Counted from the first letter of the stretch, positions 1,057 through 63,462 are shown. The stretch: DNA of 64,000 bases from an uncultured Candidatus Saccharibacteria bacterium (GCA_964641225.1 CAZXKC010000001.1:131602-195601), one strand, 5' to 3'. Made by a program: numbers and translations. The notes: a model not told the origin generated them from the sequence alone.

Positions 1057-1229
1057 AAGTGGAAGCGCAAAAAGTTTTTTACGATAGTACGAGGAAGTTC
1101 CTGCTCGAAGGCGAGGGTCAGCGGTATGCCGTACAACTGAAATAAATTACCGCTGTTACTCGTAAATAAGAGAGGGTTGCTTGTGGTTTTAGGGCTAAAA
1201 AGGTGCTATAATGCTAGAGAAAGAAGCTA

Positions 1230-1259
1230 TTGACAAAATAGCATATAGTATGCTATAAT
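1230..1259 (+). promoter_or_regulatory. sigma70-like promoter TTGACA-N18-TATAAT; 35-bp identical copy on minus strand at 27743..27772
   Basis: TTGACA at 1230-1235, TATAAT at 1254-1259; spacer holds palindrome atagcata/tatgctat. Confidence 0.5.
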
Positions 1260-1414
1260 ATACTATATGCGGTGTAGGGCCTGGTGCTGATCAAATCAGC
1301 TTCAAGCTCTGCCTCGCACGGTGCAAGGTAGACCCGAGGTCCAGGGGATGGACGGTTGGCGAAAGCCAACACCCGCGCTGGTTATAACGACCAGAAACGG
1401 AAAGGAAAAGAGTC

Positions 1415-1627
1415 ATGAGTCAGCAGCTTACGAGGGAGCAGGTCGTCAAAGACCTGTTCGACGGCAATGAGCAGGAGCTCGTCAGCCGGTTTGCAGAGGT
1501 CGCGTGGGCGCCCGAGTCCCACATGATCAGTCTCGATGTGAAGGGGTCTCTCGGTCTGCTCACGCAGATCGACGCGGAGAACTTCACGCTCGAGATCGCC
1601 GGCGATTTTGCCGGCGCTTGGCGGTAG
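1415..1627 (+). CDS. hypothetical small protein (70 aa), GC-rich cassette A
   Basis: ORF downstream of promoter with ~155-nt GC-rich structured leader; GGAAAGGAAAAG then ATG; followed by hairpin terminator. Confidence 0.35.
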   Translation: MSQQLTREQVVKDLFDGNEQELVSRFAEVAWAPESHMISLDVKGSLGLLTQIDAENFTLEIAGDFAGAWR

Positions 1628-1642
1628 TCCGCCTGAGTCACC

Positions 1643-1688
1643 GCGGCGCAGTTGGGTCTCCGACCCTCTGCGCCGCTTCGCTTTTTTT
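1643..1688 (+). terminator. intrinsic terminator (GC stem gcggcgcag/ctgcgccgc plus T-run)
   Basis: inverted repeat followed by cttttttt. Confidence 0.5.
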
Positions 1689-1873
1689 GCCCATGACATT
1701 TCTTCTCGGCGCTAGCCGGTAAGATTAAAAATGTCTTGGCGCATGCCGCGAAACCATGTATGCATGTTGTTTCGGCGGCACACTTCTGGTATCCTTTTCT
1801 CTATGCCGGGCAGTAGAGATGCGCCAACTGCCTTCGGCTAGTTTACAATCAAAGGCGCATCACACTTCCCGGC

Positions 1874-2383
1874 ATGCAAAAGTATATTATTTTTATTGTT
1901 GTTGCAGGTATTATCATTATCGGGGCGATGATGCTTAAAAAGCCGAGTCAGCCGGTTGCTGTTGTTTCAGACGACGCATATGCGGCATCTACATCGACTG
2001 AGTCAGTTGTTTCTGGTACAGCTGTTATAAACCCTAAACCAATTACTATGGCAAACGGATTAATCATTGAAGATGTAAAAATCGGTAACGGAGAGGAGGC
2101 AAAGAGCGGTATGCTTGTGAGCGTTCACTACGTAGGCACGCTGACAAATGGAAAAAAGTTTGACAGCTCGCGCGATCGCGGTGAGCCATTCCAGTTTCCG
2201 CTTGGTCAGGGGTACGTTATCAAAGGCTGGGATCTTGGCGTTGCCGGTATGAAAATCGGCGGCATTCGTAAACTGACTATTCCGGCTGAGCTTGGCTATG
2301 GTGCCGCTGGTGCAGGCAGTTCTATCCCGCCAAACGCAACGCTTAATTTTGAAGTTGAGTTGCTTGGTTTGCGTTCTCACTAA
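1874..2383 (+). CDS. FKBP-type peptidyl-prolyl cis-trans isomerase with N-terminal signal/anchor
   Basis: motifs VHYVGTLTNGKKFDSS, YVIKGWDLGVAGMKIGGIRKLTIP typical of FKBP domain. Confidence 0.8.
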   Translation: MQKYIIFIVVAGIIIIGAMMLKKPSQPVAVVSDDAYAASTSTESVVSGTAVINPKPITMANGLIIEDVKIGNGEEAKSGMLVSVHYVGTLTNGKKFDSSRDRGEPFQFPLGQGYVIKGWDLGVAGMKIGGIRKLTIPAELGYGAAGAGSSIPPNATLNFEVELLGLRSH

Positions 2384-2496
2384 GACGGTTGTACAAATTC
2401 CCCGGTTCGCCGGGGAATTTGCTTATTTTTAAAAATTTTGGTATTCTTTATTCACTGAAATTTGGCCGCTGGCCTTTTTTGTTTCCAGCATTATTT

Positions 2497-7644: not shown

Positions 7645-7753
7645 CGTAATTTTGCGCATTTCGTTGTTGCTTTGCTGCGAACCTCCTTCGCCGTACGACT
7701 ACTGTACGGCTCAGTCGTTTCTCGCTCGCGCCTAGAACTGCATCAAAATTACG
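7645..7753. repeat. ~110-nt structured intergenic repeat element, copy 1 (core GCGCATTTCGTTGT...CCTAGAACTGCATC with terminal inverted repeats)
   Basis: shares conserved core with 27217..27331; flanking and internal stems differ in sequence but remain complementary. Confidence 0.5.
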
Positions 7754-8339: not shown

Positions 8340-8925
8340 AAATATGAATGAAAATCCAGACAATCAAATCCCGAATGACCTAGACGATCTTGAGGCTCCC
8401 GATCGTACGACGCTTGAGGATTTAGTAGGGCAGGTCAAGCGTTTGGTTGGTGATCAGCCAACTGAATATCCAGATGGGCAATCTCGGATTTGCAGCCGAA
8501 CTTTCCCATTCTCCGAAGATCCTCATGGCCCTCACCAGGAAATCGAGGTTGGTTATTTTCCTGGAAGCGAATTATCTGAAGGTGCGACTTTGAGGCCAGG
8601 AGAAGAACCGAAAACATTGGTGTGGGTAAAAATTTCAACAATCGCTCATGGTCATTTGCATCGCGATGAATATCAGGTCAACAATGATTTGAGCTACGAT
8701 AAGACAACGGAAGACTATACGCCGGAAGAACGTAATCAGGGTCTAATTGCTCACGCTGACGGCGCAGAGACGGTAGTCGAAGCAACTCCAGGATTCATGG
8801 AAAGCCTTGAGCGTCGAGAGACAGAGATTAAAGAATATATTAAATTGCGTAAGAAAGGAGTTAGGGAGGGTAGCAAAAAAGCATTCAGCGGCTTAGCTAG
8901 GCTGCTTGAGGGGTATAAAATTTAA
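8326..8925 (+). CDS. hypothetical acidic protein
   Basis: ORF only; Asp/Glu-rich, no recognisable motif. Confidence 0.35.
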   Translation: MLNSRNMNENPDNQIPNDLDDLEAPDRTTLEDLVGQVKRLVGDQPTEYPDGQSRICSRTFPFSEDPHGPHQEIEVGYFPGSELSEGATLRPGEEPKTLVWVKISTIAHGHLHRDEYQVNNDLSYDKTTEDYTPEERNQGLIAHADGAETVVEATPGFMESLERRETEIKEYIKLRKKGVREGSKKAFSGLARLLEGYKI

Positions 8926-8930
8926 TTTGA

Positions 8931-9539
8931 ATGATTCAAATCTTTTTCGTCATAGTTTTAATATTTTCCGTTATCATCCATGAAATTTCGCATGGATATA
9001 TTGCGCTGCTTCTTGGAGATACAACGGCGAAGGATGCCGGACGGTTAACGCTGAATCCGCTCAAGCACATTGATATCTTCGGATCCGTTATTTTCCCACT
9101 TTTGATGATCTTTTCTGGTGGGCCGGTGTTTGGTTGGGCAAAACCGGTGCCGTATGATCCGCGATTTTTAAGAAATCCGAAAAAAGGAGCCGGGCTGATT
9201 GCGCTCGCAGGACCGGGGAGTAATTTGGTGCTCGCGATTATCTTTGCACTCGTGAGCCGTATCCTAACTACATTTCCAGCTACTGACTTTATGCAGGCGC
9301 TTTATATTTTGGTTGTCATCATCGTGCAAGTGAACATTTCTTTGGCGGTTTTCAATTTATTACCGATTCCGCCTTTAGACGGATCAGGGATTTTATTTTC
9401 ATTTCTGCCGCGGGGAACTGAAAAAGCGCAGTATTTTTTGCAGCGCTACGGATTTATTATCCTTGTCGTGCTTATTTTCTCGGGCTTAGATTTTTTGCAT
9501 CCGATTATGAGTGCGCTGTATAAATTACTTTTGGGTTAG
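8931..9539 (+). CDS. site-2 protease family (peptidase M50) membrane metalloprotease
   Basis: HEISHG zinc-binding motif in first TM, multi-TM. Confidence 0.65.
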   Translation: MIQIFFVIVLIFSVIIHEISHGYIALLLGDTTAKDAGRLTLNPLKHIDIFGSVIFPLLMIFSGGPVFGWAKPVPYDPRFLRNPKKGAGLIALAGPGSNLVLAIIFALVSRILTTFPATDFMQALYILVVIIVQVNISLAVFNLLPIPPLDGSGILFSFLPRGTEKAQYFLQRYGFIILVVLIFSGLDFLHPIMSALYKLLLG

Positions 9540-9603
9540 AATTCGTCGCTATAGTTGATTCGTTTTGGTTGATTGTGATAGGGTAGCTCTGAGGGAGGTC
9601 AAT

Positions 9604-24722: not shown

Positions 24723-25433
24723 ATGGACGAACAAAAACCACAACAGAATACGAATCCAGCTCCGGCAGCCTCTGCCGCCGCAGCTCCGAAGGCAGCGGCC
24801 CCAGTCGCTCGTCCAGGCTTTGATCGCCGCCCAGGTGGTCCAAATCGTGGCGGCCCAGGAGGTATGGGAGGTCGCTCGCGCGGTCCGGGAGGTCCTGGCG
24901 GAGGTCAGGGTCGTCCAGGCGGCCGTGGCGGATCTCGCGATAATCGTCCGTTTGTAAAGAAAGACGATTTCCAAGAACAGACGCTTGATATGCGCCGCGT
25001 CGTACGCGTTATGGCCGGTGGTAAGCGTTTCCGTTTCCGTGCAACGATGGTTATCGGTGACCTTCGCGGACGCGTTGGTGTCGGTATGGGTAAGGGACTC
25101 GACGTGCAGCAGGCAATTGCAAAAGCAAAGCGTGATGCCCAGAAGCACCTGATCGTTGTTCCGCTTTCAAAGCGTACGATTCCGCACGAGGTTGAGGCAA
25201 AGTTTTCAGCCGCTCGTATTCGCTTAAAGCCAGCTCGTGAAGGACACGGATTGGTTGCCGGTGGTGCTGCCCGCGCTGTGCTCTCGCTTGCTGGCATCAA
25301 AGATGTCACCGCCAAGACACTTGGCCGCACGCCAAACCAGGTGACTAACGCGCTTGCAACCTTTGAAGCTCTCAAGCAGCTCAAGGCTCGTAAACCAAAA
25401 GTTGAAAAGAAAGAGGTAGTCGAAGCTAAATAA
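24723..25433 (+). CDS. rpsE: 30S ribosomal protein S5 with ~70-aa Gly/Pro/Arg-rich N-terminal extension
   Basis: S5 dsRBD core RVVRVMAGGKRFRFRA. Confidence 0.9.
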   Translation: MDEQKPQQNTNPAPAASAAAAPKAAAPVARPGFDRRPGGPNRGGPGGMGGRSRGPGGPGGGQGRPGGRGGSRDNRPFVKKDDFQEQTLDMRRVVRVMAGGKRFRFRATMVIGDLRGRVGVGMGKGLDVQQAIAKAKRDAQKHLIVVPLSKRTIPHEVEAKFSAARIRLKPAREGHGLVAGGAARAVLSLAGIKDVTAKTLGRTPNQVTNALATFEALKQLKARKPKVEKKEVVEAK

Positions 25434-27216: not shown

Positions 27217-27331
27217 CTCGCGCATCTGGCGCATTTCGTTGTCGCCGCGCTGCGCTTCTCGTTCGACGTATTTAAAAAATACGCCTCACTCGCTGCTCGC
27301 TAGCTCCTAGAACTGCATCCAGATGCGCGGG
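27217..27331. repeat. ~110-nt structured intergenic repeat element, copy 2 (after secY)
   Basis: conserved core with copy 1; outer IR gcgcatctgg/ccagatgcgc followed by gttttgg (may terminate secY transcript). Confidence 0.5.
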
Positions 27332-27422
27332 TTTTGGTGTTAGTCTGAAATTTATCTAAATATCGTGTTCTGAAAATCAGAGCCGGCTGGTCCCCGAAGG
27401 GATCCGGCCGGTTTCTTGTTCT

Positions 27423-27695
27423 CTACTTCGGGAGCATCTTGCCGACCACGAGGCCGGCCGTGAAGATCTCCGTCAGAAGTTGGTGTTCAGCCGATCCTTC
27501 GATGTTGGCTCGACTCAGGAATTCTGCGGTCTTCTGCTCCGCCTCTGGCGTGAGCATTAACGAATACACTCCGAAGCCGAGCGGACGGTTGAGGTCTGCT
27601 TCTCTGGGGATGATCCTGCCAGCCCCGTCGTTAAGGATCAGTACTGCTTGGCCGCCGAGATTTCTCTCGATTCCGGCCTGTCCAAAACGGTACAT
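27423..27695 (-). CDS. hypothetical small protein (~90 aa), GC-rich cassette D
   Basis: RBS GGAGGAG 5 nt before ATG at 27695; alternative starts 27707/27725; hairpin terminator 27368-27410. Confidence 0.4.
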   Translation of the reverse strand: MYRFGQAGIERNLGGQAVLILNDGAGRIIPREADLNRPLGFGVYSLMLTPEAEQKTAEFLSRANIEGSAEHQLLTEIFTAGLVVGKMLPK

Positions 27696-27742
27696 TCTCT
27701 CCTCCATTTCCCGATTCGGCAACACGCCTCATCGTAATATTT

Positions 27743-27772
27743 ATTATAGCATACTATATGCTATTTTGTCAA
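27743..27772 (-). promoter_or_regulatory. promoter identical over 35 bp to the one at 1230..1259
   Basis: ctattgacaaaatagcatatagtatgctataata on minus strand. Confidence 0.5.
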
Positions 27773-28979: not shown

Positions 28980-29354
28980 ATGGAAGATTTTAGATTTTTA
29001 GAGTGGCCGATTTACAAAGATGCAAAGGAGGTGGTTAATTTAGTTTTTGCTTTGACCAATAAGTTTCCGCAGCATTTTCGATATGAATTAGGAAGCCAGA
29101 TGAATCGTTCCGCTATTTCTATTGTTCTTAATATTGCAGAGGGCAGCGGAAAGCGTTCTGATAAAGATTTTGCTCATTTTCTTAATATCGCACACGGTTC
29201 CCTCTACGAAACTCTCGCGGGATTTGATTTGGCGCTTAGTAATCGATTAGTATCAGGGGATCAGTTCAGTGATTTGCATGCCCGATTACTCGGTATCGCT
29301 AAGCAGCTTGGGGGTTTTAGAAAAAAATTAACAAAGCCTAAGTTTGTAGTTTAA
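28980..29354 (+). CDS. four-helix-bundle protein (23S rRNA intervening-sequence protein / Avd-like family)
   Basis: characteristic LNIAEGSGKRSDKDFAHFLNIAHGSLYE motif. Confidence 0.7.
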   Translation: MEDFRFLEWPIYKDAKEVVNLVFALTNKFPQHFRYELGSQMNRSAISIVLNIAEGSGKRSDKDFAHFLNIAHGSLYETLAGFDLALSNRLVSGDQFSDLHARLLGIAKQLGGFRKKLTKPKFVV

Positions 29355-33321: not shown

Positions 33322-33356
33322 ATAAATCAGTAAAAATCGTTAATTGCTTACGCAGT

Positions 33357-35348
33357 ATGAATAAAAAAATCAACATAATTCTTCTTTCTGTAACGCTTGT
33401 TGCTTCAAGCGTGTTTTTTGTTCCGACTGCATCGGCTGTTAGCGTTGGTGTCCCGAGTTCATATAGCTCAGTTGGTACTCCAGTTTCTGGCGGCGTCTCA
33501 GTGGGTAGTCCTTCAGGATACACGGCGTCAGTTGGTTCTGTTGTGCAGAGCTCAGCATCATATGGTGTGCCTTCTCAGTATGGAGGTGTGTCTATCGGTA
33601 GTCCGTCAGCATATGGTTCATCGGTAGGTGTACCTACATATTCAACCTCCTATGGAGTTCCGTCGCAGACCGGCGGTATTTCAGTTGGTGCTCCAGCAGG
33701 TAGCGTCTCTTCGGTTGGTATGCCGGTTCGTTCGACCTCATATGGCGTACCCTCAAATTATGGCGGCGTTTCAATTGGTTCACCGACCACGTATGGTTCG
33801 GTTGGTGTACCTGTGTATGGTAGTTCTATTGGTGTGCCGTATTCCGGTGGTGTCTCTGTTGGTGTGCCGGCTGGTCCACGTCCCTCAACCGGAGTTCCGG
33901 TTTCAAGTGGTTCTATTGGCGTGCCAATTTCCGGCGGCGGTGTCTCCGTTGGCGTTCCAAGCGGTTCGCATGTTTCAACTGGCGTACCTGTACATGGCGG
34001 CACCTCAATCGGTACGCCGATTTCTGGTGGCGTATCAGTCGGTGTTCCAGTAACAGGCGGTACCTCTGTTGGTGTTCCTGCCAGCGGTGGAACCTCGGTT
34101 GGTACTCCGGTAGCGACCGGCTGTCCGTCTGGCTATGTCTTTAATATTACGACGCAGAGCTGTAAACAAAATGTCTCAACTGGTGTCCCGGCTTCAACAA
34201 GCTGCCCGACCGGCTACGTGTTTAGTGTTTCTACGCAGAGCTGCGTGCAATCAACCTCAGCCGGAGTTCCGGTTAGCTTGAGCTGTCCGTCAGGCTACTT
34301 CTATAGCGTCTCGCAGATGCAGTGTGTGGCATATTCAAATCAGTGTCCGGCCGGCTACACGCTTTCAAATGGCGTGTGTGTTCCAAACTCAAACAACCAG
34401 TGCCCGAGCGGGTATTATTTTGATACCACGACAAACACCTGCCGTCCGAACGTTGTAAATCCGCCGATTAACAATTACTGTCCGTCCGGATATTATTACA
34501 ACACCGCGGCCAATGCCTGTTACCCGAACACCTCGTATTACCCGAACTACAACAGTTGTGGTAGCGGTTATTATTACAACACGCAGAGCAACAGTTGTTA
34601 TCCAAACAATTACGGAGGCGGTTGCAGCATCAACTGCGGTTATCCATACAGCAACAATTATTCCTACGGATACAACTACGGCTATAACTCTGGTTATTAC
34701 CAGCAGCCGACTGCATATTACACAGTTCCAAACACATATTATCCGTCACAGCCGCAGGTGACTATAACGCAGCCGCAGGTTGTGATTCAGCAGCCGAGCG
34801 TCTCTGTGACGCGTCCGGTTACGCCGGCTCCGGTTGCGCCTTCAACCAACGTGGTTGTTGCCAGCGCGAACATCTTGGATCTCTACAATATTTCAATTCG
34901 TACCGACCAGGACGGCAACACGATCGTTGCCTGGGATAACAATGTGCCGACGATCGGCGAGGTTGTCTTTGGTCTAAACAGCCAGCCCGTTGATGGACTT
35001 GCGCAGTACAGTTATGACTTTACGACTGGTCCAATCGGTCCGCTGAATGCGCACCACGAGGTTAACCTGGGTCGCCTTGAGTTAAACCGTCCGTACTATA
35101 TGCGTATTGTCTCGCGCTCAGAGAACGTCCTCCGGGGCGGGCAAGCAAGCCATGTCTCGTCAGAAATGGTCTATATTCCGGTTCCGGGTAAGCACGTTAC
35201 GCCGAACACGGATCAATCAACGCTTGCGCAATCATACAGTCTGCTTGATTCAGTTGGTCTGCGCGGCGCGATCTTGATCTTGCTTGTTATTGCGTTGATC
35301 GTGCTCGTATATATTGTTGCTAAGCGTCGGGCCGCGTACTATTCGTAA
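33357..35348 (+). CDS. cell-surface protein 1: signal peptide, ~220 aa of S/G-V-G-V-P heptad-like repeats, eight CPxGY...C cysteine repeats, FN3-like domain, C-terminal TM anchor
   Basis: direct reading of repeats; C-terminal LILLVIALIVLVYIVAKRR anchor. Confidence 0.7.
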   Translation: MNKKINIILLSVTLVASSVFFVPTASAVSVGVPSSYSSVGTPVSGGVSVGSPSGYTASVGSVVQSSASYGVPSQYGGVSIGSPSAYGSSVGVPTYSTSYGVPSQTGGISVGAPAGSVSSVGMPVRSTSYGVPSNYGGVSIGSPTTYGSVGVPVYGSSIGVPYSGGVSVGVPAGPRPSTGVPVSSGSIGVPISGGGVSVGVPSGSHVSTGVPVHGGTSIGTPISGGVSVGVPVTGGTSVGVPASGGTSVGTPVATGCPSGYVFNITTQSCKQNVSTGVPASTSCPTGYVFSVSTQSCVQSTSAGVPVSLSCPSGYFYSVSQMQCVAYSNQCPAGYTLSNGVCVPNSNNQCPSGYYFDTTTNTCRPNVVNPPINNYCPSGYYYNTAANACYPNTSYYPNYNSCGSGYYYNTQSNSCYPNNYGGGCSINCGYPYSNNYSYGYNYGYNSGYYQQPTAYYTVPNTYYPSQPQVTITQPQVVIQQPSVSVTRPVTPAPVAPSTNVVVASANILDLYNISIRTDQDGNTIVAWDNNVPTIGEVVFGLNSQPVDGLAQYSYDFTTGPIGPLNAHHEVNLGRLELNRPYYMRIVSRSENVLRGGQASHVSSEMVYIPVPGKHVTPNTDQSTLAQSYSLLDSVGLRGAILILLVIALIVLVYIVAKRRAAYYS

Positions 35349-37304: not shown

Positions 37305-37421
37305 TTTAGCCCATCGGAGAGATTCCAATGCAATACAAAAACTGCCCTCACGGGCAGTTTTTGTTTGGAAATGGGTGGCGGGACCAGAGGAGCTGGTCCC
37401 GCGCGGCGCTAGGGGAGAAAT

Positions 37422-37619
37422 TCAGTCGACGATGAGTTTTCCGGTGGCGTCGTACCTGCGTTCGGGTTGCGTGAGTGCGCCCCACATCAAGAAGCAAATT
37501 CGATCTACGCCATGAACTCCCATCGGCATAGTTCGAGCCGGCGGCGCACTCTCCCGGGTGCCTCCGCAGGCATTTTCGTGGTCTTTTTCGCAACTGCTTT
37601 TCCCAACCAACTCTTCCAT
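37422..37619 (-). CDS. hypothetical small protein (65 aa), GC-rich cassette F
   Basis: RBS GGAGG 5 nt before ATG; two hairpins downstream (37379-37400, 37337-37363). Confidence 0.3.
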   Translation of the reverse strand: MEELVGKSSCEKDHENACGGTRESAPPARTMPMGVHGVDRICFLMWGALTQPERRYDATGKLIVD

Positions 37620-37759: not shown

Positions 37760-39001
37760 ATGAAAAACTATACAGGTTTTAAGCCTTTTATAGCGATTTC
37801 CGTAGTATTTATGGCCTTTTCTGCCGTTTCAGCCGCCTCAGCCGCGGTCTATTATGATCAGCTTGGCCAGGCGCACTATTATGATACCTACGAGGTTCCG
37901 TGTGGTCAGTATTACCCGCCGGCTCCATGTACGAGCTCTAATTATGGCTATAACACCAGCGTTGCGTATGGCTATCAGTCTGGCTACAGTACAACGGGCG
38001 CCTCTTCGTATAACGCGCGCGGTAATCGTCAGCCGGTGATTTTTTCTGCGCCGGTGCGCGAGGCTATTGATGGCCATTCCTATGTTGCCGGTATTAATGC
38101 CTCAGATCCGGATCACGATCAGATTACGTATGCGCTGGTTTCTGGTCCGTCTGGTATGTATATTGATTCAAATACCGGATTGCTTCATTGGAATTCAACG
38201 TCAGGAAAATCTGGTAAGAGTTTCCCGGTAACGGTAAGTGCGACCGACGGTCGTTCTGCGCCGGTTACGCAGAGCTTTACGTTGAGCGTTCGTAGTTATG
38301 GCGGCGGTTCTTCAAGTAATAGCTCGGGTAGTTCAAGTTACACCGGTTCAATTTTTGGTAGCTTGTTTGGCAGTAAAACACCTAAAGGTATCGTGATTAG
38401 CAACGTCAATGTTGTTTCCGGTCCAAAGGATATTAACGATACGACTGAACAAAATTGTAACGTGTATGTTTCGTGGAGCACGAATGTTGCTACAGCCGGA
38501 CAGGTTGTGTATGGTCCGACCTCGCAGCAGTCACTTGAAAATTATTCCTATCCGCAGAGTGCACCAGAGGGTAATGCGTATGCTAAAGAACACCAGGTAA
38601 AGCTCGGTTGTTTGGGAAACGCCACTGCGTTTTTCCGTATCGTGGCTTTCTCATCAACTGATCGAGTTGCTTCAAGTGAGTACACTATTTTCCCGATTAA
38701 GATTGCAACTCAGATTCCGGGTTCGGTTAGTTATGCAGGAAATATTGCTGCGGTTACTGAATCATCGGGCTCATCAATCTGGGGTCAGATTCTGAAATTT
38801 ATCTTCCACCCGGTGGTGATTATCGTGCTTTTGATCGCCGGTATTTGGTACGCCGTGCTGCGCGTTCTGGGGCGTCTTAACTCCAAGGCGGCGCGTCATA
38901 AGGAGGCTCAGGCTGCTGCAGCCGCAACTCACTCTGCGCCAGTAGCTACGAACGGTCACGCGACTTCGCACGAGATTCCAATGCTTTCAGTTCCTCATTA
39001 A
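37760..39001 (+). CDS. cell-surface protein 3: signal peptide, Tyr-rich region, one He_PIG-like domain, Gly/Ser linker, FN3-like domain, C-terminal TM anchor
   Basis: paralogous C-terminal module; ITYALVSGPSGMYIDSNTGLLHW motif. Confidence 0.7.
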   Translation: MKNYTGFKPFIAISVVFMAFSAVSAASAAVYYDQLGQAHYYDTYEVPCGQYYPPAPCTSSNYGYNTSVAYGYQSGYSTTGASSYNARGNRQPVIFSAPVREAIDGHSYVAGINASDPDHDQITYALVSGPSGMYIDSNTGLLHWNSTSGKSGKSFPVTVSATDGRSAPVTQSFTLSVRSYGGGSSSNSSGSSSYTGSIFGSLFGSKTPKGIVISNVNVVSGPKDINDTTEQNCNVYVSWSTNVATAGQVVYGPTSQQSLENYSYPQSAPEGNAYAKEHQVKLGCLGNATAFFRIVAFSSTDRVASSEYTIFPIKIATQIPGSVSYAGNIAAVTESSGSSIWGQILKFIFHPVVIIVLLIAGIWYAVLRVLGRLNSKAARHKEAQAAAAATHSAPVATNGHATSHEIPMLSVPH

Positions 39002-39012
39002 GATTGATTAAA

Positions 39013-39071
39013 GAAATGCACCGGGCCGCCAGCCCGCCTTAGACGGGCAAGCTGGCGGCCCGGTGCATTTC
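39013..39071. terminator. 21-bp perfect GC-rich hairpin (gaaatgcaccgggccgccagc / gctggcggcccggtgcatttc)
   Basis: read directly; after surface protein 3 stop. Confidence 0.5.
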
Positions 39072-39097
39072 TCCCTCAAACGCGCTACTCTACTACC

Positions 39098-39877: not shown

Positions 39878-40009
39878 TTTTTGTTGACAAAATTCATATT
39901 TTAGAGCATTTTATACTTGGACCCTCGCGTGAGGAGCCCTGCCGCCTCGACAGGTTCGAGGCAGTACGGGCGCACTACGCGACCGTTCCTGAAACAGGAG
40001 GACAGCGCG

Positions 40010-40672
40010 ATGCGCTACTTCATCAACGGCATGTTCCTGCAGATGGGAGAAGGAATCGGTGTGCGGACTATTCCGGGCGCGGGTTCGGTTGCTGTCTTCG
40101 AGACCAAGACCCGCGGCTACATCTTCAACGGCGTCATCCAGCGCCTGAATTCCAGCAATCCCTGGACCGGCTGGGTGCTCGACCACTTCGGCTACGCGAC
40201 GCTCACCAACATCGTCTTCGGCGACGGCGAGCTGCGCTTCACCAAGAAGTACGAAGGTTGCGACGACGAGATCCACTGCACCTTTCGCAAGCACCCCGAC
40301 GCCGAGGCGGTGCTCGTCGGCTACTACGAGGGCGTGGACACGGGCAAGAACACCGCCTGGTGCATGATGACCGGGGTGTCAGATCGCATGTTCGACGAGG
40401 GCGTCATCAAGGGGCTGGCAGCCGGACAGCCCAAGCTGCCGATTGTAACACTGGACGCCGATCAGGAGCGCGAGTGGAGGGAGTACAAGCGAGCGGGTGG
40501 CACTCTGCCCGCGGCTGAAATCCCGCGCGTCAACGAGATTGTTCAGCTCTGCGCTCCAGACGGCCGCTCCATCGCGACGGCGTACCTCAACTCGAACGAC
40601 ATCAAGGGCGGTCTGCCCGACGGACGTACCAATGTCACAGTCAGTGCGACCGTGAGAACCAGGTTCTGCTAG
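40010..40672 (+). CDS. hypothetical protein (220 aa), GC-rich cassette G
   Basis: RBS AGGAGG before ATG 40010; TTGACA at 39884; terminator 40679-40735 (gagacccgca/tgcgggtctc plus TTCGTTTTT). Confidence 0.5.
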   Translation: MRYFINGMFLQMGEGIGVRTIPGAGSVAVFETKTRGYIFNGVIQRLNSSNPWTGWVLDHFGYATLTNIVFGDGELRFTKKYEGCDDEIHCTFRKHPDAEAVLVGYYEGVDTGKNTAWCMMTGVSDRMFDEGVIKGLAAGQPKLPIVTLDADQEREWREYKRAGGTLPAAEIPRVNEIVQLCAPDGRSIATAYLNSNDIKGGLPDGRTNVTVSATVRTRFC

Positions 40673-40784
40673 AGCAACGAGACCCGCAAGGGCGTCGAGA
40701 GACGCACGCTCTGCGGGTCTCTCTTCGTTTTTGACCATTCGTTCAAAATCTGATATTATTGAATAACGCTGGCTGGGCCGGCGT

Positions 40785-56918: not shown

Positions 56919-57122
56919 ATGGCGATTATTATCAACATCGACGTTATGCTGGCTAAGCGCAAGATGAGCGTTACTGAACTCGCTGACCGAGTCGGCATCA
57001 CCATGGCCAATATCTCTGTTTTGAAAAATGAAAAGGCCAGAGCAATTCGTTTTTCAACGCTCGAGGCAATTTGCAAGGCGTTAGATTGCCAACCCGGGGA
57101 TATTTTAGAGTACAAAAAATAG
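56919..57122 (+). CDS. helix-turn-helix transcriptional regulator (XRE/YozG-like)
   Basis: MSVTELADRVGITMANISVLKNEK HTH. Confidence 0.75.
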   Translation: MAIIINIDVMLAKRKMSVTELADRVGITMANISVLKNEKARAIRFSTLEAICKALDCQPGDILEYKK

Positions 57123-57183
57123 TCGAGACTCTGCGCTTCGGCTTTATTGCTAAAACCGGACTACGGTATGGTATAATATAACC

Positions 57184-57870
57184 ATGACTAATAGTCCGGA
57201 TTTAAAAAGCCGTGCAATCACTCTGCGTAAACAAGGGCTTACGTATTCAGAGATTATGGCGCAAATTCCTGTTGCTAAATCAACTCTATCTGACTGGCTG
57301 CATTCGGTAGGCTTGGCAAAACTCCAAAAACAGATTCTTACCGAAAAGAAAAAATTAGGACAACAGCGTGCTGCAGCGGCGAAAAGAACGCAAAGAATAG
57401 AAAAGGAATCTGCGATTAGAGTGGGAGCAAAATCTGAAGTTGCACATTTGATTAAAGACCCTTTGTGGCTTTTAGGTGTCGTTCTCTATTGGAGCGAAGG
57501 CAGTAAGCAGAAAGCATGGACTACATCAATGGGAGTTCGTTTTATGAATATGGATCTGGAGGCCCATAGACTCTTTATAAAATGGAGTAAAAAATATTTA
57601 AATACGAGCCCGGAATATTTTCGGTTTGAAATTTATATTCATGAAAAAGCCAACATTGAAAAAGCAAAAAGTTATTGGTCAAAAAATTTGAGTATCCCAA
57701 CAGAAGAAATTCGGATCTATTATAAAAAGCATAATCTCAACCCAAACAGGAAAAATATACATCAAGATTATTATGGAGTTCTTAGAACATCAATCAGTAA
57801 AAGCACGGATTTAAATAGGAAGATTGCAGGTTGGACTGAGGGTGTGATAAAGTACTTCCAACAGAAATAG
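57184..57870 (+). CDS. hypothetical protein with N-terminal HTH; possible LAGLIDADG-like motif (LGVVLYWSEGSK)
   Basis: LRKQGLTYSEIMAQIPVAKSTLSDWL HTH-like; endonuclease assignment speculative. Confidence 0.35.
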   Translation: MTNSPDLKSRAITLRKQGLTYSEIMAQIPVAKSTLSDWLHSVGLAKLQKQILTEKKKLGQQRAAAAKRTQRIEKESAIRVGAKSEVAHLIKDPLWLLGVVLYWSEGSKQKAWTTSMGVRFMNMDLEAHRLFIKWSKKYLNTSPEYFRFEIYIHEKANIEKAKSYWSKNLSIPTEEIRIYYKKHNLNPNRKNIHQDYYGVLRTSISKSTDLNRKIAGWTEGVIKYFQQK

Positions 57871-57878
57871 AAGCTGAT

Positions 57879-57949
57879 TGGGGGGTCGTCTAACGGCAGG
57901 ACTCCAGGTTTTGGTCCTGGCTATGAGGGTTCGATTCCTTCCCCCCCAA
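57879..57949 (+). tRNA. tRNA-Gln (anticodon TTG)
   Basis: cloverleaf folded by hand: 7-bp acceptor tgggggg/cccccca, D-stem gtct/ggac, anticodon stem ccagg/cctgg with loop ttTTGgt, T-arm gaggg-TTCGATT-ccttc; no encoded CCA. Confidence 0.8.
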
Positions 57950-57952
57950 CAT

Positions 57953-58576
57953 ATGAAAATTCTTCACAGAGTTGAATCGATAGAGGCCAAAAGGACTTTT
58001 GTGGTTGCTGATTACATCACACAAAGAAAGACTACTGGTAATAATCGCAAGTTCCTCAAAGACGTATCAGAAAAAGAATTTAGTGAAAAATTGATCCAAG
58101 CGAAGAAAGTAATACTGAAGTTGGATGAAAAAGATTTGGATAGGCTTGTGAGTCCAAAATGGCCCAAGAGAATTAAAGCATACAACAATAGCCAGTGGTT
58201 TTTAGCACAAGTTAGCGCGAAAGAAGTAGGAGTTTGGCGTCGAGCCGGAAACTTACCTTTACAATGGACAAACGGTTCACTTTTTGAAACTGCAGGAAAA
58301 GTTAAAGCTGCCTTGATGACAAATTCGAAGCTGCTAAAGCAGCGACCAAAGCACAGCATTCCGAATATTTTAAAAATAAAAACTCATTTAGAACAGAAAG
58401 AAAAATACTTATACCCGATTGTTTTTAAGACTGATACGGGTACAAAAGGTAGAAAGCGATTGAAAAATAAAACGAAGGGTGATATTGATGACGGTTGCAT
58501 GCGCTCTATCGCTCTAGCTATCAGCGGTAGAAATCCTATAACTGTTTATTTCGGGATTCCTAAAAAAGAGACTTAA
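57953..58576 (+). CDS. hypothetical basic protein
   Basis: ORF starting 4 nt after tRNA 3' end. Confidence 0.4.
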   Translation: MKILHRVESIEAKRTFVVADYITQRKTTGNNRKFLKDVSEKEFSEKLIQAKKVILKLDEKDLDRLVSPKWPKRIKAYNNSQWFLAQVSAKEVGVWRRAGNLPLQWTNGSLFETAGKVKAALMTNSKLLKQRPKHSIPNILKIKTHLEQKEKYLYPIVFKTDTGTKGRKRLKNKTKGDIDDGCMRSIALAISGRNPITVYFGIPKKET

Positions 58577-58585
58577 TAACTTTCT

Positions 58586-59023
58586 ATGCCTGAATTAAAA
58601 ACAAAGGTGAATACGGCCAGTGTCGAGAAATTTTTGCACACGATTAAAGACGAGCATAAGCGCGCTGATTGCTTTGTTATCTCTAAGATGATGGAGAGAG
58701 CGACAAAATCTAAGCCGGAAATGTGGGGTACATCGATCGTTGGCTTTGGTCGCAGAACGTATACGTATGCAAATGGTAAAACGGGAGAGTGGATGGTTAT
58801 CGGCTTTGCCCCGCGCAAACAAAATATTGCGCTCTACGGTTTAAAAGTTTTTGAAATGACAAAAGGTGGCTTGAAAGAGCCCAAAGGAGCAAATGATTTT
58901 CTCTTAACCCTAGGAAAATATAAAGAAGGCGGCGGCTGTCTCTATATCAATACGCTCTCCGACGTTAACACGAAGCAGCTTGAGAAAATCATCACGCTCG
59001 CGGTACGTCGTAGCAAACAATAG
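58586..59023 (+). CDS. DUF1801 (YdhG-like) domain protein
   Basis: N-terminal VEKFLHTIKDEHKRADCFVISKMMER ... motif; family assignment from memory. Confidence 0.5.
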   Translation: MPELKTKVNTASVEKFLHTIKDEHKRADCFVISKMMERATKSKPEMWGTSIVGFGRRTYTYANGKTGEWMVIGFAPRKQNIALYGLKVFEMTKGGLKEPKGANDFLLTLGKYKEGGGCLYINTLSDVNTKQLEKIITLAVRRSKQ

Positions 59024-60274: not shown

Positions 60275-60303
60275 TTGACAAATAAGTAATAGTGTGCTAT
60301 AAT
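60275..60303 (+). promoter_or_regulatory. promoter TTGACA-N17-TATAAT for cassette I (divergent from dnaX)
   Basis: 60275-60280 and 60298-60303. Confidence 0.5.
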
Positions 60304-60389
60304 GAACTTAACCGCATGGTGCGGGGGTTTGCGATTTTTTTTCTCAGGGATCGAGGCTTCACGGCCTCATGTAGTAGGGAGGTAGTTCG

Positions 60390-61238
60390 ATGCAGGAGCT
60401 GAATGTCACGGCAGTGGTTCCGGACGTTGCGACGTTCGCCAAGGAACGTTGGGGCATCTCGATTCTCGATTGCGCGACCGAGCGGGAGCTGCGCGACCGA
60501 GTGTTCGAGAACGTTTTCCTCAAGACGACCAGCAAGGACTTCGTCGAGCGCATGATGGCTCTGGATGTCCTGTTCGGGATGAATCCAACCTTCCTGCAGT
60601 CTGACGAGGCGCGCGTGTGTCGTGAGTTCTGTCTCAAGGAGTTCGCGCCGAGCGTCGATGACTTCTGGGAGATCGTCAGGGCGCAGCCGTTCAAGCGCTT
60701 CTCGACGCTCCAGGCCTTCTGGCGACAGAAGGATCTGGACGAGAACGACCGCTACCGGAAGGAGCAGCAGGAGGCGCACGAGCGCTATCTCGCAGAACAG
60801 GAGCAGCGACGTCTGGACAATCAGCGCGAGAAGGCCAAGCGAGAGCACGAGGAGCGTCTCAAGCGCATGACCTCGTTCTCGAATCTGGAGAGCTTCCTGG
60901 CGGTCCAGAAGATCGTCCGCAAGACGGGGGAGTCGAATGTCAACCTGCGACAGCGGGCCTTCGTCGAACTCTTCCTGCGCAGCAACCGGATGGCCGAGGA
61001 GGTGCGTTTCGTCGCGCGGGCCGAGGCGATGGAGGTGCTGATCGGATTCCGTCCCAAGTACCTGCGCATCGATGACCTGCGATGGGCGGAGCGGTTCTGT
61101 GATCGGAACATGCTCCAGTCCAAGGACAGTCTCGAGGAGTTCGCATCCACCTGGCAGGAGCGTATGCCTTCAGCGGTCGATCTGCTCAAGCGGCTCGGCC
61201 TGAGTGCGAAGGTCATCGGAGAGGCTGTCGCGGCGTAG
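60390..61238 (+). CDS. hypothetical protein (282 aa) with central charged coiled-coil-like region, GC-rich cassette I
   Basis: RBS GGGAGG; leader contains hairpin plus T8 run (60311-60345); terminator 61261-61305. Confidence 0.5.
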   Translation: MQELNVTAVVPDVATFAKERWGISILDCATERELRDRVFENVFLKTTSKDFVERMMALDVLFGMNPTFLQSDEARVCREFCLKEFAPSVDDFWEIVRAQPFKRFSTLQAFWRQKDLDENDRYRKEQQEAHERYLAEQEQRRLDNQREKAKREHEERLKRMTSFSNLESFLAVQKIVRKTGESNVNLRQRAFVELFLRSNRMAEEVRFVARAEAMEVLIGFRPKYLRIDDLRWAERFCDRNMLQSKDSLEEFASTWQERMPSAVDLLKRLGLSAKVIGEAVAA

Positions 61239-61318
61239 CGACGGAGACAGAACATCAACTGAGGCGCGGTGACCACATGGTCGCCGCGCCTCTTAACTTT
61301 TTATAGTAGACTATATAG

Positions 61319-62596
61319 ATGGCTGTTCGAAACACCGCTCTTATTACCTGCGTGACTTTACTTCTGGTCATTGGGGCCGGTATTTTTTTACTTACGATGC
61401 CAGATGCGCGTTCTACATTGCTTGGATCGCTGACGCCGAGCACGGAGCCGGTGCATATTGACCCAAACGCAGATATTGAACCGCAACAGAAGTTAGAGCA
61501 TCCGCCGCATCCTATTAAGGCAATGTATTTAACCTCCTGGTCTGCCGGAGGCGCTGCGGCAGTGGCGCGCGCCGTTGATTTAATTTCAAGCACAGAATTA
61601 AATGCTGTTGTAATTGATATTAAAGATTACACTGGCATGGTCAGTTATAAGCCGGCGATTGCGCAGGTAGTTGATTACGAGGCGTTTGAACCGCGCATTA
61701 AAAAAATTAATGCGCTCATTAAACAATTTCACGATGCGGGTGCGTATGTGATCGGTCGTATCGCCGTGTTTCAGGACCCGCAGCTTGCAAAGGCGCGGCC
61801 TGAGTTTGCGCTAAAGAGTAAAAAAACCGGACTGCCGTGGGGTGATCGAAACGGGATTCATTGGATGGACGCGGCTGCGCCGGCTGTGTGGGATTACAAC
61901 ATTGCGATTGCAAAGGATGCGCTGCAGCGTGGGTTTGATGAGGTTCAGTTTGACTACATCCGGTTTCCGACTGACGGCGATCTGACGGATATTCAATATG
62001 CATTTTACGATCCCGCCAAAGAGCCAAAACGACAGGTGATTACGAATTTTCTTGCGCATGCGCGCAGCGAGTTGCCGTACGCAAACATTTCAGTCGATAT
62101 TTTTGGCGAGACGGCGGTATTTGGCGAGGACACGGGGATTGGTCAAAAATTTGAGGATCCGTTTCCCTATGTTGATGCGGTTGCGCCGATGATTTATCCG
62201 TCGCATTTTGCAAGCGGCTTTCTTGGGTTTACAAAACCAGCCGAGCATCCGTATGACGTTATTTTGTATGCCATGAACGGTGGTTTTGCAAAATTAAAAA
62301 AACTTGAGCAGACATTTTTGAAAACGCCGAGCTCTACCTTGCCTGCGCTTGCAGAAATTCGACCGTGGCTACAGGATTTTAATTTAGGGGCGACGTATGA
62401 CGCGGCAAAAGTCCGGGCACAAATTGATGCGGCAAACGATGCTGCGCGAAAAGCAGCGGGATGCAAGACGCAACACACAACTGACAACTTACAACCTACA
62501 ACCGATGTTTGTAAGAATATTGAGATTGGCTGGATGCTCTGGGGTGCGGGATCGGGGAATAACACTAAGGGGGCGCTGAAGGCAGAAGCGAATTAG
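61319..62596 (+). CDS. putative glycoside-hydrolase-like TIM-barrel protein (GHL/DUF4015-like), N-terminal TM anchor
   Basis: family assignment from memory of motif region YLTSWSAGG...VIDIKDYTG; moderate. Confidence 0.45.
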   Translation: MAVRNTALITCVTLLLVIGAGIFLLTMPDARSTLLGSLTPSTEPVHIDPNADIEPQQKLEHPPHPIKAMYLTSWSAGGAAAVARAVDLISSTELNAVVIDIKDYTGMVSYKPAIAQVVDYEAFEPRIKKINALIKQFHDAGAYVIGRIAVFQDPQLAKARPEFALKSKKTGLPWGDRNGIHWMDAAAPAVWDYNIAIAKDALQRGFDEVQFDYIRFPTDGDLTDIQYAFYDPAKEPKRQVITNFLAHARSELPYANISVDIFGETAVFGEDTGIGQKFEDPFPYVDAVAPMIYPSHFASGFLGFTKPAEHPYDVILYAMNGGFAKLKKLEQTFLKTPSSTLPALAEIRPWLQDFNLGATYDAAKVRAQIDAANDAARKAAGCKTQHTTDNLQPTTDVCKNIEIGWMLWGAGSGNNTKGALKAEAN

Positions 62597-62633
62597 GCTC
62601 TGAAAGCCCTTGGAGTATAGGGTTTTAGGGTAC

Positions 62634-62662
62634 TTGACAAAATACGACATCGGGTGTATAAT
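62634..62662 (+). promoter_or_regulatory. promoter TTGACA-N17-TATAAT for DGR target gene
   Basis: 62634-62639 and 62657-62662. Confidence 0.5.
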
Positions 62663-62695
62663 ATACATTAGGTCTTTGAAAGCAGAGTTGCTAGA

Positions 62696-62792
62696 TTAGC
62701 CGCACAAATTGGGTTGTTTTTAATCAAAAAATAGACCAATTTGTGCGGCTAAGAACTCACCGTGTGGTGAGAGCCGTGAGTTCTCTTTTTTC
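62696..62792 (+). promoter_or_regulatory. structured 5' leader: 17-bp perfect inverted repeat (ttagccgcacaaattgg / ccaatttgtgcggctaa) then terminator-like hairpin gaactcac/gtgagttc plus TCTTTTTTC
   Basis: read directly; sits between promoter and RBS GGAGGA. Confidence 0.5.
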
Positions 62793-62805
62793 GGAGGAAC
62801 AGCCC

Positions 62806-63462
62806 ATGACTCAGTCTGGGACAGTCCGTAAGATGACCGATGGTCAGCGCAGCGATCTGATCGCGACGATCACGGGAGTGATTCCCGCAGATCTCACGTT
62901 CGACGAGGCGCAGGCAATCATCGGCAGCAAGGGTCCGTTCGTGGCCGACATCCGTCAGGCGTTCGCCAAGCGGCGGATTCGGGCGCCGGGACACTTTCCG
63001 GTCTGGCGTACGATCCAGGTCGGTACCCATGGGAACTCGAAGGGTCTGCAGGAGGCCGTCGAACAGGGTGGCTGCCAGATCAGCAGCTGGGCGGCCGACA
63101 TGATGAAGCGACCCACCTTCACGCTCGCCAAGGAGCCCGGCACCGTCAATCTCGTCCGGGTCAAGGTTAGCGAGTTGGGGTTCATGAAGAACACGCCCCT
63201 TTCGCAGATTCGTGATCGGGGTGTGGAACTCGGTCTTGCACTCTGTGAACCTGAGGACGGGCCGCAGCTTCGTCTGCAGTATCCGGAGCAGCCGATGGGC
63301 GAGGCGGTCTGGATGGCCATGAACGCCATCGTGTGCTCGAACGGCAACCCGCACATCTTCTGCGTCTTTCACGGCGAGGACGGTCGGTACCTCCGCGTCT
63401 ACGTCGGCTATCCGGGCCGCCTCTGGGGTCCCGACGACGGGTTCGTCTTCCGCAAGAAGTAG
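62806..63462 (+). CDS. DGR target protein candidate (218 aa) with C-terminal variable region; GC-rich cassette J
   Basis: ATG after RBS GGAGGAACAGCCC; last ~40 codons form VR matching TR with adenine-specific mismatches. Confidence 0.6.
   Translation: MTQSGTVRKMTDGQRSDLIATITGVIPADLTFDEAQAIIGSKGPFVADIRQAFAKRRIRAPGHFPVWRTIQVGTHGNSKGLQEAVEQGGCQISSWAADMMKRPTFTLAKEPGTVNLVRVKVSELGFMKNTPLSQIRDRGVELGLALCEPEDGPQLRLQYPEQPMGEAVWMAMNAIVCSNGNPHIFCVFHGEDGRYLRVYVGYPGRLWGPDDGFVFRKK
63336..63455 (+). repeat. DGR variable repeat (VR)
   Basis: 120 nt aligning to 63808-63927; all 23 mismatches fall at TR adenines. Confidence 0.7.

Follow-up and report, generated by a model that had tools for sequence, protein, structure and literature searches.

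GC-rich, self-punctuated orphan-gene cassettes between core genes of a Paceibacteria-like bacterium: probable imports of moron-like form

Phage morons, defined and reviewed for elements of the HK97/HK022 type under the Juhala/Hendrix concept (PMC3594210), are single genes that carry their own promoter and factor-independent terminator, lie between two genes that in a relative adjoin or enclose different DNA, deviate in composition from their neighbours, and are expressed apart from the surrounding operons to yield accessory products. The stretch of DNA analysed here, CAZXKC010000001.1:131602-195601 of the genome GCA_964641225.1 (64,000 nt, filed under an uncultured Candidatus Saccharibacteria bacterium and referred to throughout as the window), holds nine GC-rich single-gene units, named i1 to i9, that resemble morons in these traits, the independent expression and accessory products being read from sequence alone. 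The units are unlike phage morons in that core genes of a cellular chromosome (fusA, tuf, rpsL, secY, pgk, RNase P RNA and dnaX) flank them, with no phage genes nearby, and in that they are very dense, all shifted to high GC and of one codon usage. They appear to show three moron features but not residence in a phage, and are better described as moron-like than as strict morons; at the sequence level, a promoter and terminator serving a single gene are recognised for every unit except i2, which fails in this respect, and i6, which is weak, while extra or different DNA between genes that are adjacent in a relative is evident from comparison with the sister genome CAZJVT01, described below.

Chromosomal hot spots of horizontal gene transfer (HGT) have reportedly been described by Oliveira, Touchon and Rocha in 2017, and a flexible-island concept, with replacement-type islets flanked by core genes, is said to come from Rodriguez-Valera. 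The present loci resemble both in their conserved core-gene flanks, non-homologous content, lack of mobility genes and presumed recombination in the flanks, and in behaviour the units resemble the single-gene extreme of such hot spots or islets. They differ in size, with one gene of 0.35-1.1 kb per unit, in the promoter and terminator that insulate each gene, in sharing promoter and terminator modules, and in being uniformly GC-rich orphans rather than, for example, glycosylation clusters. The general phenomenon of HGT islets at hot spots is already familiar; the literature that was searched reported no comparable set of densely spaced, self-punctuated orphan-gene cassettes of uniformly high GC in the core regions of bacteria of the Candidate Phyla Radiation (CPR).

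Integron cassettes and CALIN arrays (clusters of attC sites lacking integron-integrases) are likewise built of small single-ORF units with unrelated contents, deviant composition and a conserved hairpin-forming 3' element, and two tandem cassettes of the sister genome share 5' and 3' frames at 93-94%. Unlike these arrays, in which promoterless cassettes follow a common promoter, the present units are dispersed over 62 kb, bear their own promoters and end in T-tailed 3' hairpins of the terminator type, with no attC core sites and no integrase among the roughly 40 open reading frames (ORFs) of the window scanned; an identity as integron cassettes was ruled out on these grounds. Genomic islands, integrative elements, insertion sequences and miniature inverted-repeat transposable elements were also rejected, no flanking direct repeats of at least 9 bp or adjoining tRNA having been found, and no integrase or transposase among the ORFs scanned. 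A likeness to the target genes of CPR diversity-generating retroelements (DGRs), namely a variable repeat (VR) at the C-terminal end of a small protein that differs from its template repeat (TR) specifically at adenines, is confined to i9, the sole DGR target among the nine cassettes; the reverse transcriptase presumably lies outside the window.

On balance, the units are probably moron-like insulated expression cassettes that have entered intergenic hot spots again and again from a high-GC gene pool, and that pass between CPR genomes as modules running from promoter to terminator.

Composition, codon usage and coding character

Taken as a whole, the window is 48.3% GC. For a backbone reference set of 41 genes, recognised via Pfam or by orthology to the sister genome, the GC content of third codon positions (GC3) is 0.478 ± 0.043 with a maximum of 0.575, and all nine unit ORFs lie above this maximum, at 0.61-0.88 (z 3.0-9.4). 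The order GC3 > GC1 > GC2, typical of coding sequence shaped in a high-GC genome, is seen in seven of the nine, with GC3 and GC1 almost the same in i2 and i6. Bulk GC was assessed with a model-free maximum-scoring-segment scan of the whole window (log-likelihood ratio, LLR, of at least 10 as the cut-off; maximum in shuffled sequence 11.3), which returned seven segments, six of them corresponding to i1, i3, i5, i7, i8 and i9 (LLR 15-51), with i2, i4 and i6 marginal (LLR 5.5-9.9; i4 at 7.4). Composition across the window is plainly non-uniform, and the description in an earlier note on this DNA, of nine G+C-rich segments with G/C-dominated third positions in an AT-richer backbone, is borne out for GC3 in all nine and for bulk GC in six. 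The units amount to nine in 64 kb, approximately one per 7 kb and 10% of the DNA.

The seventh segment is the native rpsE gene (24756-25333), with a GC3 of 0.46, whose high GC arises from the first and second codon positions via an N-terminal extension rich in Gly, Pro, Ala and Arg. This gene serves as an internal control that tells amino-acid-driven GC from foreign codon usage. The ribosomal protein S5 that it encodes (24723-25433) bears a low-complexity Ala/Pro/Gly/Arg-rich extension of about 75 aa (GC1 0.73, GC3 0.46) and is the only native outlier in bulk GC.

Codon choice in the units departs sharply from that of the backbone, the codon fractions in window and sister cassettes being 0.90 and 0.94 for TTC (vs 0.21 in the backbone), 0.85 and 0.98 for ATC (vs 0.33) and 0.98 and 0.92 for AAG (vs 0.52). 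The codon usage of the strong cassettes of the window correlates with that of the sister cassettes at r = 0.96, and is far from that of both backbones. Amino-acid usage is shifted as well, with Arg at 8.2% and Lys at 4.2% in the five strongest cassettes compared to 4.9% and 6.3% in the backbone, and with Ile also reduced, which argues for long evolution under genome-wide GC pressure rather than for local synonymous selection. Codon bias linked to expression was ruled out by the GC3 of tuf and the ribosomal protein genes, which is near 0.5.

The units are protein genes, as indicated by codon periodicity and Shine-Dalgarno (SD) sites in their ORFs, by the ratio of non-synonymous to synonymous substitution (dN/dS) in i7, by an internal duplication in i8 and by the DGR variable repeat in i9. 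The NCBI annotation calls the same ORFs, apart from a different start for i4 and from i5, for which the only record comes from a Logan assembly. No cassette gave an Rfam match either at the gathering threshold or at E ≤ 1, the only Rfam signals in the window being one tRNA, a sub-threshold RNase P RNA and hairpin noise; an interpretation as structured non-coding RNA genes was rejected for want of such a match and in view of the strong codon periodicity.

Sequence searches of Pfam, PHROGs, PADLOC and the PDB produced no meaningful match for the unit proteins. A translated search (tblastn) with the i1-i9 proteins found nothing in 50,697 phage records, nor did one with the i1-i8 proteins (concatenated) in 72,556 plasmid records; scans of IMG/VR with i7 and i9, and of JGI metagenomes with i7 and an i5 relative designated P0002, were empty. 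The cassette proteins are similar neither to one another nor to those of the sister. Matches of i8 to JetB and Windbeutel were dismissed, with E ≥ 1e-3 and confinement to a coiled-coil region. Deep searches extended to 5.8 billion protein clusters for i5, i7 and i8 and to 1.84 billion representatives for i3 (full HMMER); i1, i2, i4, i6 and i9 were searched against Pfam, PHROGs, PADLOC, the PDB, phages and 90%-identity clusters, with plasmids added for i1, i2, i4 and i6. In the deep searches i8 and i3 matched only themselves, i5 matched itself and P0002, and i7 had three relatives at 72%, 54% and 51% identity; where relatives exist they occur only in other low-GC contigs, two of them CPR-like, with no member in any high-GC organism. 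The eight units outside the DGR thus remain, as had been noted, of no recognisable homology or function across Pfam, PHROGs, PADLOC, the PDB, Rfam, phages and plasmids. P0002 is 80% identical to i5 in its C-terminal half and unrelated in its N-terminal half, and is followed by two genes of about 600 aa, as is i5; it can be read as occupying the same slot.

Slot contents and transferable units

A backbone ABC-F gene places the window among Paceibacteria or 'Harrisonbacteria'-like CPR bacteria, and the organism appears to be one of these rather than a Saccharibacterium. The closest genome by this gene is the sister, CAZJVT01, at 86% amino-acid identity. Gene order is conserved between the two, while backbone orthologues show a synonymous divergence (dS) of 0.45-2.5, such that synonymous sites are essentially saturated and an ancestral GC-rich gene should have ameliorated by now.

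Nucleotide homology between the two genomes ends and resumes exactly at the cassette gaps. In the fusA / tuf slot, occupied by i3, the break runs from 13333 to 14218 and the sister carries three other genes, two of which have GC3 of 0.77 and 0.81. The M50 / rpsL slot of i2 (break 9415 / 10034) holds no gene in the sister, the i6 slot (37367 / 37722) is filled there by 1358 bp bearing a non-homologous ORF of GC3 0.71, and the i7 slot (39861 / 40797) by 603 unrelated bp with no island. Upstream of the surface-protein cluster, where i5 lies in the window, the sister encodes an unrelated secreted protein with GC3 0.85. A further slot, rpsJ / rplC (15948 / 16858), contains an ordinary-GC aldo-keto reductase gene in the window and, in the sister, a gene for a peptidoglycan-binding protein, a 236-aa gene and two cassettes with GC3 0.83 and 0.86. 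In all, the sister has six GC-rich orphan ORFs of its own (GC3 0.71-0.86), unrelated ones filling the slots of i3, i5 and i6, and no GC-rich gene in those of i2 and i7. These comparisons show that the slots are conserved and their contents are not, GC-rich orphan genes filling them in both genomes. The suggestion that foreign genes of a high-GC type had been acquired repeatedly is strengthened by the homology breaks, by the differing contents of the sister slots (empty for i2, 603 unrelated bp for i7) and by the distinct codon and amino-acid usage.

Evidence that a cassette moves as a unit comes from the i7 family. L074, a contig obtained in another sequencing run, has similarity to the window over 39879-40728 alone, at 79% identity and with unrelated flanks, the match spanning from just before the -35 box to just past the T-run of the terminator. 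In L072/L073 the i7 homologue lies between rplU and recR as a GC3-0.72 island with its own promoter, within a backbone of 40-49% GC. Three i7 copies out of four, those of the window, L074 and L075 (the last at 81% by BLAST), share a conserved terminator, and that of L072 is similar by eye. The family occurs in at least three contexts, always as a GC-rich, self-punctuated unit within a lower-GC genome, and is under purifying selection (dN/dS 0.17-0.36). These observations lend substance to the alternative raised in the earlier note, of a mobilised promoter-gene-terminator cassette. Retro-copying of mRNAs by the DGR reverse transcriptase was rejected because the conserved unit takes in the -35 box. 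Flanking the cassette of L074 is a 25-bp direct repeat (147-171 and 1240-1264; 92%; GGTCTCGGTAGGG.TCAC..AGATG), with a third partial copy at 225-238; this motif (GGTCTCGGTAGGG...) was not found in the window.

Directionality of third-position change was examined by parsimony in the four i7 copies, with two pairs of copies serving as mutual outgroups. Pooled over L074, L072 and L075, derived changes from GC to AT number 28 vs 4 from AT to GC, small parsimony-based counts at saturated sites, and the corresponding counts for the window copy, the most GC-rich, are 3 vs 6. Such an excess would be expected of cassettes that are GC-rich on arrival and afterwards lose GC toward the composition of the host, and is supportive only.

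Framing modules recur independently of the ORFs that they enclose. The i1 and i4 promoters are identical over 34 bp in spite of lying on opposite strands 26 kb apart, and two tandem cassettes of the sister (L071 8256-8330 / 8867-8930 and 8791-8860 / 9427-9484), with unrelated ORFs of 156 and 166 aa, share a 64-bp 5' segment (94%) and a 60-bp 3' terminator segment (93%). The i3 terminator forms one family with three sister cassette terminators, shared across slots and genomes, and, together with a 130-nt inverted-repeat element, recurs in a different sister slot. Such modules could act as recombination handles. The inverted-repeat element itself (about 130 nt, window 14095-14227) consists of two GC-rich arms of 20 nt (CCCCCACACCAACAGAGCAG and its reverse complement) that enclose some 85 nt of AT-rich sequence, and the tuf promoter draws its -35 box from the right arm; the sister homologue (L071 16810-16950) precedes the rplC promoter instead, and in both genomes the element directly follows a GC-rich cassette with a related terminator.

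Signatures of site-specific mobility were sought without success: no direct repeat of at least 9 bp flanks any cassette, the 130 nt downstream of each of the nine ORFs contain no attC core pair (RYYYAAC...GTTRRRY), and the Pfam scan of about 40 window ORFs revealed no integrase, transposase or recombinase domain and no phage structural or replication gene. The only tRNA of the window, for Gln (57879-57950), is not next to any cassette.

The individual units and neighbouring elements

Perfect promoters of the form TTGACA-N17/18-TAnnnT precede i1, i4, i5, i8 and i9, accounting for five of the ten perfect sites in the window. The claim that seven units share a consensus TTGACA promoter, with only weak sequence at the remaining two, stands for these five, for the near-consensus i3 and for i2 and i6, for which no promoter was found, but not for i7, which has a perfect -35 box and no canonical -10 at 17 nt. 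A CTATTGACAA-N10-14-TGCTATAAT signature is shared by i1, i4 and i8, with variant -10 boxes at i5 and at the L002 cassette of the sister (TAGAGT and TATACT); a looser form, TATTGACAA..TGCTA, has an expected chance count of 0. As a cassette-specific mark the signature was discarded, being a near-perfect sigma-70 promoter with an extended -10, and because more than 120 viral contigs carry the same type it is uninformative on origin.

A GC-rich stem-loop (-24 to -48 kcal/mol, mostly with a T-tail) follows every unit ORF, as had been claimed, but that of i2 belongs to the backbone, since the sister genome lacks i2 and keeps the hairpin. The cassette leaders are long and structured, with fold z-scores of -3.1 for i1 (1266-1414), -2.6 for i7 (39920-40009) and -5.5 for i9 (62669-62805), and none of them has an Rfam match. 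The i9 leader contains an inverted repeat with a perfect 26-nt stem (62696-62752), and in the leaders of i8 (60310-60350) and i9 a hairpin followed by a T-run ahead of the SD resembles a transcription attenuator. The antisense shadow ORFs noticed earlier are present, and are an expected by-product of high GC3.

The first cassette, i1 (1230-1695, plus strand), lies between an ftsX-like gene and a gene for an FKBP-type isomerase. Its promoter (1230-1259, TTGACA-N18-TATAAT) is followed by a structured, GC-rich leader (1266-1414), an ORF for 70 aa (1415-1627, GC3 0.82) whose product is a singleton protein cluster, and a hairpin with a T7 tail (approximately 1643-1690). The i2 unit (9604-10023, plus), in the M50 / rpsL slot, encodes a predicted membrane protein of 139 aa with marginal GC3 (0.62); it has no promoter of its own and sits between the stop codon of the M50 peptidase gene and the conserved hairpin of that gene (10034-10070). 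Between fusA and tuf, i3 (13422-14085, plus) comprises a promoter at 13422-13450 (TTGACG-N17-TATATA), an ORF of 173 aa (13501-14022, GC 0.62, GC3 0.70) and a terminator at 14037-14072.

On the minus strand between secY and pgk, i4 (27368-27772) has its promoter at 27743-27772, an ORF of 90 aa from an ATG (27423-27695) preceded by a GGAGGAGAGA SD, and a hairpin at approximately 27371-27411; the 100-aa form from a GTG (27423-27725, GC3 0.68) is not the annotated one. The i5 cassette (32209-33266, plus) lies between the RNase P RNA gene (rnpB) and a cluster of genes for surface proteins with carbohydrate-binding-module and immunoglobulin-like domains, which it heads. It consists of a promoter (32209-32237), a leader, an SD (GGAGGA), an ORF (32348-33217, GC3 0.88) for a 289-aa protein with a signal peptide ending in AQA, and a hairpin (33239-33264). 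The adjoining RNase P RNA, of bacterial class A (31711-32048, minus), is immediately upstream of i5 and matches the full model at 75 bits (Rfam gathering threshold 100; E = 4.9e-21); it appears to be a divergent CPR RNase P. Also on the minus strand, i6 (37373-37619) has an ORF of 65 aa (37422-37619) with marginal GC3 (0.61), an SD (GGAGGT), a hairpin (37376-37401) and no clear promoter.

The i7 cassette (39879-40728, plus), between an rluB-like gene and an ABC-F gene, has its -35 box at 39884, a structured leader (39920-40009), an ORF of 220 aa (40010-40672, GC3 0.83) and a terminator (40679-40721), and its AlphaFold2 (AF2) model shows a β-barrel with a small domain (pLDDT 63). Between dnaX and a gene for a DUF4015 glycosyl hydrolase (GH), i8 (60275-61305, plus) is composed of a promoter (60275-60303), the leader with hairpin and T-run, an ORF of 282 aa (60390-61238, GC3 0.83) and a terminator (61261-61292). 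Its product is all-α with an internal duplication of 65 residues (E = 6e-9) and a long central helix (single-sequence AF2 model, pLDDT 64).

The ninth cassette (62634-63572, plus), between the GH gene and the DGR, has a promoter at 62634-62662, a highly structured leader, an ORF of 218 aa (62806-63462, GC3 0.80) and a terminator at approximately 63532-63572. Its variable repeat (VR, 63312-63455) is identical to the template repeat (TR, 63784-63927, plus) at 114 of 144 positions, and within a 120-nt core all 20 mismatches fall at TR adenines, which confirms i9 as the DGR target that it had been taken to be. The TR has no match in the other cassettes. Only 73 nt of the window follow it, and the DGR reverse transcriptase presumably lies further on. 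Genes of the bAvd / 23S rRNA intervening-sequence protein family occur at 28980-29354 of the window and, beside the i7 homologue, at 2541-2900 of L072, with no DGR link established.

Several elements outside the units deserve mention. A repeat of about 100 nt (7649-7749 and 27224-27324; 77-82% identity), found just after the stop codon of a thioredoxin-reductase-like gene and after secY, may be a structured terminator or an element resembling repetitive extragenic palindromes. An AT-rich stretch (57000-58600, GC 0.34-0.41), containing a gene for an HTH_23 protein (57184-57870), the tRNA-Gln gene and an unannotated ORF of 207 aa, may be a separate integrated element. A GC-rich inverted repeat of 27 bp (39012-39072; 93%) follows a surface-protein gene (37760-39001); the terminator scan counts 20 stem pairs in it, and it gave spurious sub-threshold Rfam matches to microRNAs.

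Origin and significance of the cassettes

A cassette typically consists of a strong sigma-70-type promoter, often a structured leader, an SD, an orphan ORF whose codon usage is of the high-GC kind, and an intrinsic terminator. Under the reading proposed here, it would fill hot-spot slots between core operons as a chromosomal counterpart, in form, of phage morons, probably adding a gene without disturbing the neighbouring operons since its own promoter and terminator insulate it. The ORFs would have evolved for long under high-GC mutation pressure in a pool absent from public data, most plausibly high-GC relatives within the Patescibacteria or their mobile elements, because members of the clade reach 58-60% GC with matching codon usage (r with the cassettes up to 0.91-0.93). 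A study of groundwater metagenome-assembled genomes (MAGs) ascribed most of the gene transfer detected into Patescibacteria to other Patescibacteria (PMC12455944). Imported repeatedly, the ORFs would then drift toward the lower GC of the host, with i2, i3, i4 and i6 as putative older or partly ameliorated arrivals. Entry was probably by DNA uptake and subsequent recombination in the conserved flanking genes or in shared promoter and terminator modules, given that no integrase, att site, target duplication or attC site was found. The products are putative accessory factors for interaction with the cell surface, a host or phages, and are predicted to include a secreted protein (i5), a membrane protein (i2), a DGR-diversified binder (i9), a β-barrel protein (i7) and a helical repeat protein (i8).

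A number of observations weigh against this reading. No donor or reservoir sequence was found, such that import is deduced from composition, codon usage, the amino-acid shift and directional decay (itself drawn from few changes) and not from a donor-recipient pair, and i3 is without any homologue. No recombination machinery or site signature was identified. The i7 family is the only one with homologues in more than one context, the mobility of the others being inferred from slot replacement. Not every unit is a strong case: i2, i4 and i6 are weak outliers in bulk GC, i2 appears to lack a promoter and terminator of its own, and the coding strand of i3 is inferred from promoter, SD and terminator and is not proven, codon periodicity alone being ambiguous. 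Finally, GC-rich genes persist at the same slots in both sister lineages although backbone dS is saturated, and the i5 slot has a promoter type, a leader motif and a class of signal-peptide protein in common between window and sister, traits that would also accord with a resident gene maintained in situ or replaced by another allele.

An artefact of assembly or binning, with high-GC reads chimerically joined into a low-GC contig, might be suspected of a MAG with sharp composition breaks. Independent Logan assemblies are nevertheless identical (100%) to the window over 31819-34304 (L001, 2486 bp, including the i5 junctions) and 8551-10223 (L077, 1673 bp, including the i2 junction), the breaks fall at functional punctuation (promoter, SD and terminator), the separately assembled sister shows the same architecture, and the i7 homologues form islands in three further assemblies; the chance of such an artefact is negligible, and chimeric assembly, a concern of the earlier note, is effectively excluded. 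The same note had pointed to an actinobacterial host as the donor, each gene being captured directly from a high-GC host chromosome. CPR bacteria are often episymbionts, the codon usage and the shift from Lys to Arg are typical of genomes of about 62-66% GC, and the deep searches, which covered i3, i5, i7 and i8, leave a host homologue possible for i1, i2, i4, i6 and i9. This proposal has not fared well, however, and is judged distinctly improbable: the four deeply searched proteins match only themselves or low-GC contigs and have no homologue in any high-GC organism, tblastn gave no plasmid or phage match, the only i7 relatives are GC-rich islands in other low-GC contigs, and the conserved unit that is transferred includes the AT-rich TTGACA promoter and the leader. 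The organism is, moreover, Paceibacteria-like, and to our knowledge no actinobacterial host is known for such bacteria.

An explanation without import would be that the units are resident, vertically inherited and very fast-evolving accessory genes, whose high GC is kept in place, for instance by GC-biased gene conversion at loci prone to recombination or by selection on the mRNA, and whose slot contents look unrelated only through extreme divergence and domain swapping. The occupation of the same slots in both sisters accords with this, as do several features of the i5 slot, which encodes a signal-peptide protein in the window, the sister and P0002 alike, keeps the C-terminal domain of i5 in P0002 (80%) with the N-terminal domain replaced, and bears CTATTGACAA..TATGCTA and the TGGGTTAGGTGGAG leader motif in both window and sister; there is also a weak recurrent similarity in a PPxPTG..NN linker (not significant, E ≥ 0.13), and the i7 copies, at dS 0.7-1.5, still have GC3 of 0.72-0.83. 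It is an unlikely explanation all the same, in that the slot held by the i7 family varies from genome to genome, the sister slots contain nothing corresponding to i2 or i7, three of four i7 lineages show the excess of changes from GC to AT, the amino-acid shift points to long residence under genome-wide GC pressure, and the highly expressed native tuf and ribosomal protein genes have GC3 near 0.5. Strict morons, with this CPR lineage's own GC-rich phages, plasmids or DGR-bearing mobile elements as the vehicle and the chromosomal copies as remnants after integration and deletion, are rather improbable. DGRs are often carried on mobile elements, and one cassette is a DGR target; the homogeneous codon usage across the cassettes of two genomes suggests a single pool, and the near-perfect consensus promoters of the cassettes, with an extended -10, are of a type common in viral contigs. 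In architecture the units match morons exactly (PMC3594210), yet the proteins have no PHROG match, no relatives of i7 or i9 in IMG/VR and no tblastn match among the phage records, the window ORFs scanned include no phage structural, integrase or replication gene, and the units have no flanking repeats and are flanked by core cellular genes. Speculatively, and with little confidence, the Paceibacteria lineage may itself run an integrase-free cassette-exchange system, in which a private pool of GC-rich orphan genes circulates as promoter-ORF-terminator modules and the module handles swap ORFs into fixed slots beside the most conserved genes. The handles would be the 34-bp i1/i4 promoters, the 64-bp and 60-bp frames of the sister and the shared terminator family, and the high GC would stem from an unrecognised GC-rich CPR episome or virus, or from biased gene conversion linked to recombination.

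The genomes of CPR bacteria, or Patescibacteria, are tiny and streamlined, and how they gain lineage-specific functions is poorly understood. With import from a high-GC pool as the favoured reading, about 10% of a core-gene region that includes the str/S10/spc ribosomal cluster would consist of individually insulated foreign orphan genes, which poses the puzzle of where a high-GC reservoir missing from billions of catalogued proteins resides, and of how its genes enter without a recognisable recombinase or site. GC3 together with promoter and terminator punctuation offers a simple handle for finding the newest genes in such genomes, and the secreted protein beside surface-adhesin genes and the DGR-diversified binder are candidate factors for interaction with a host or with phages. 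If the reading is true, these loci would afford an unusually clean, gene-by-gene view of accessory-genome flux in a reduced symbiont, with full turnover of contents between two genomes and with the slots fixed.

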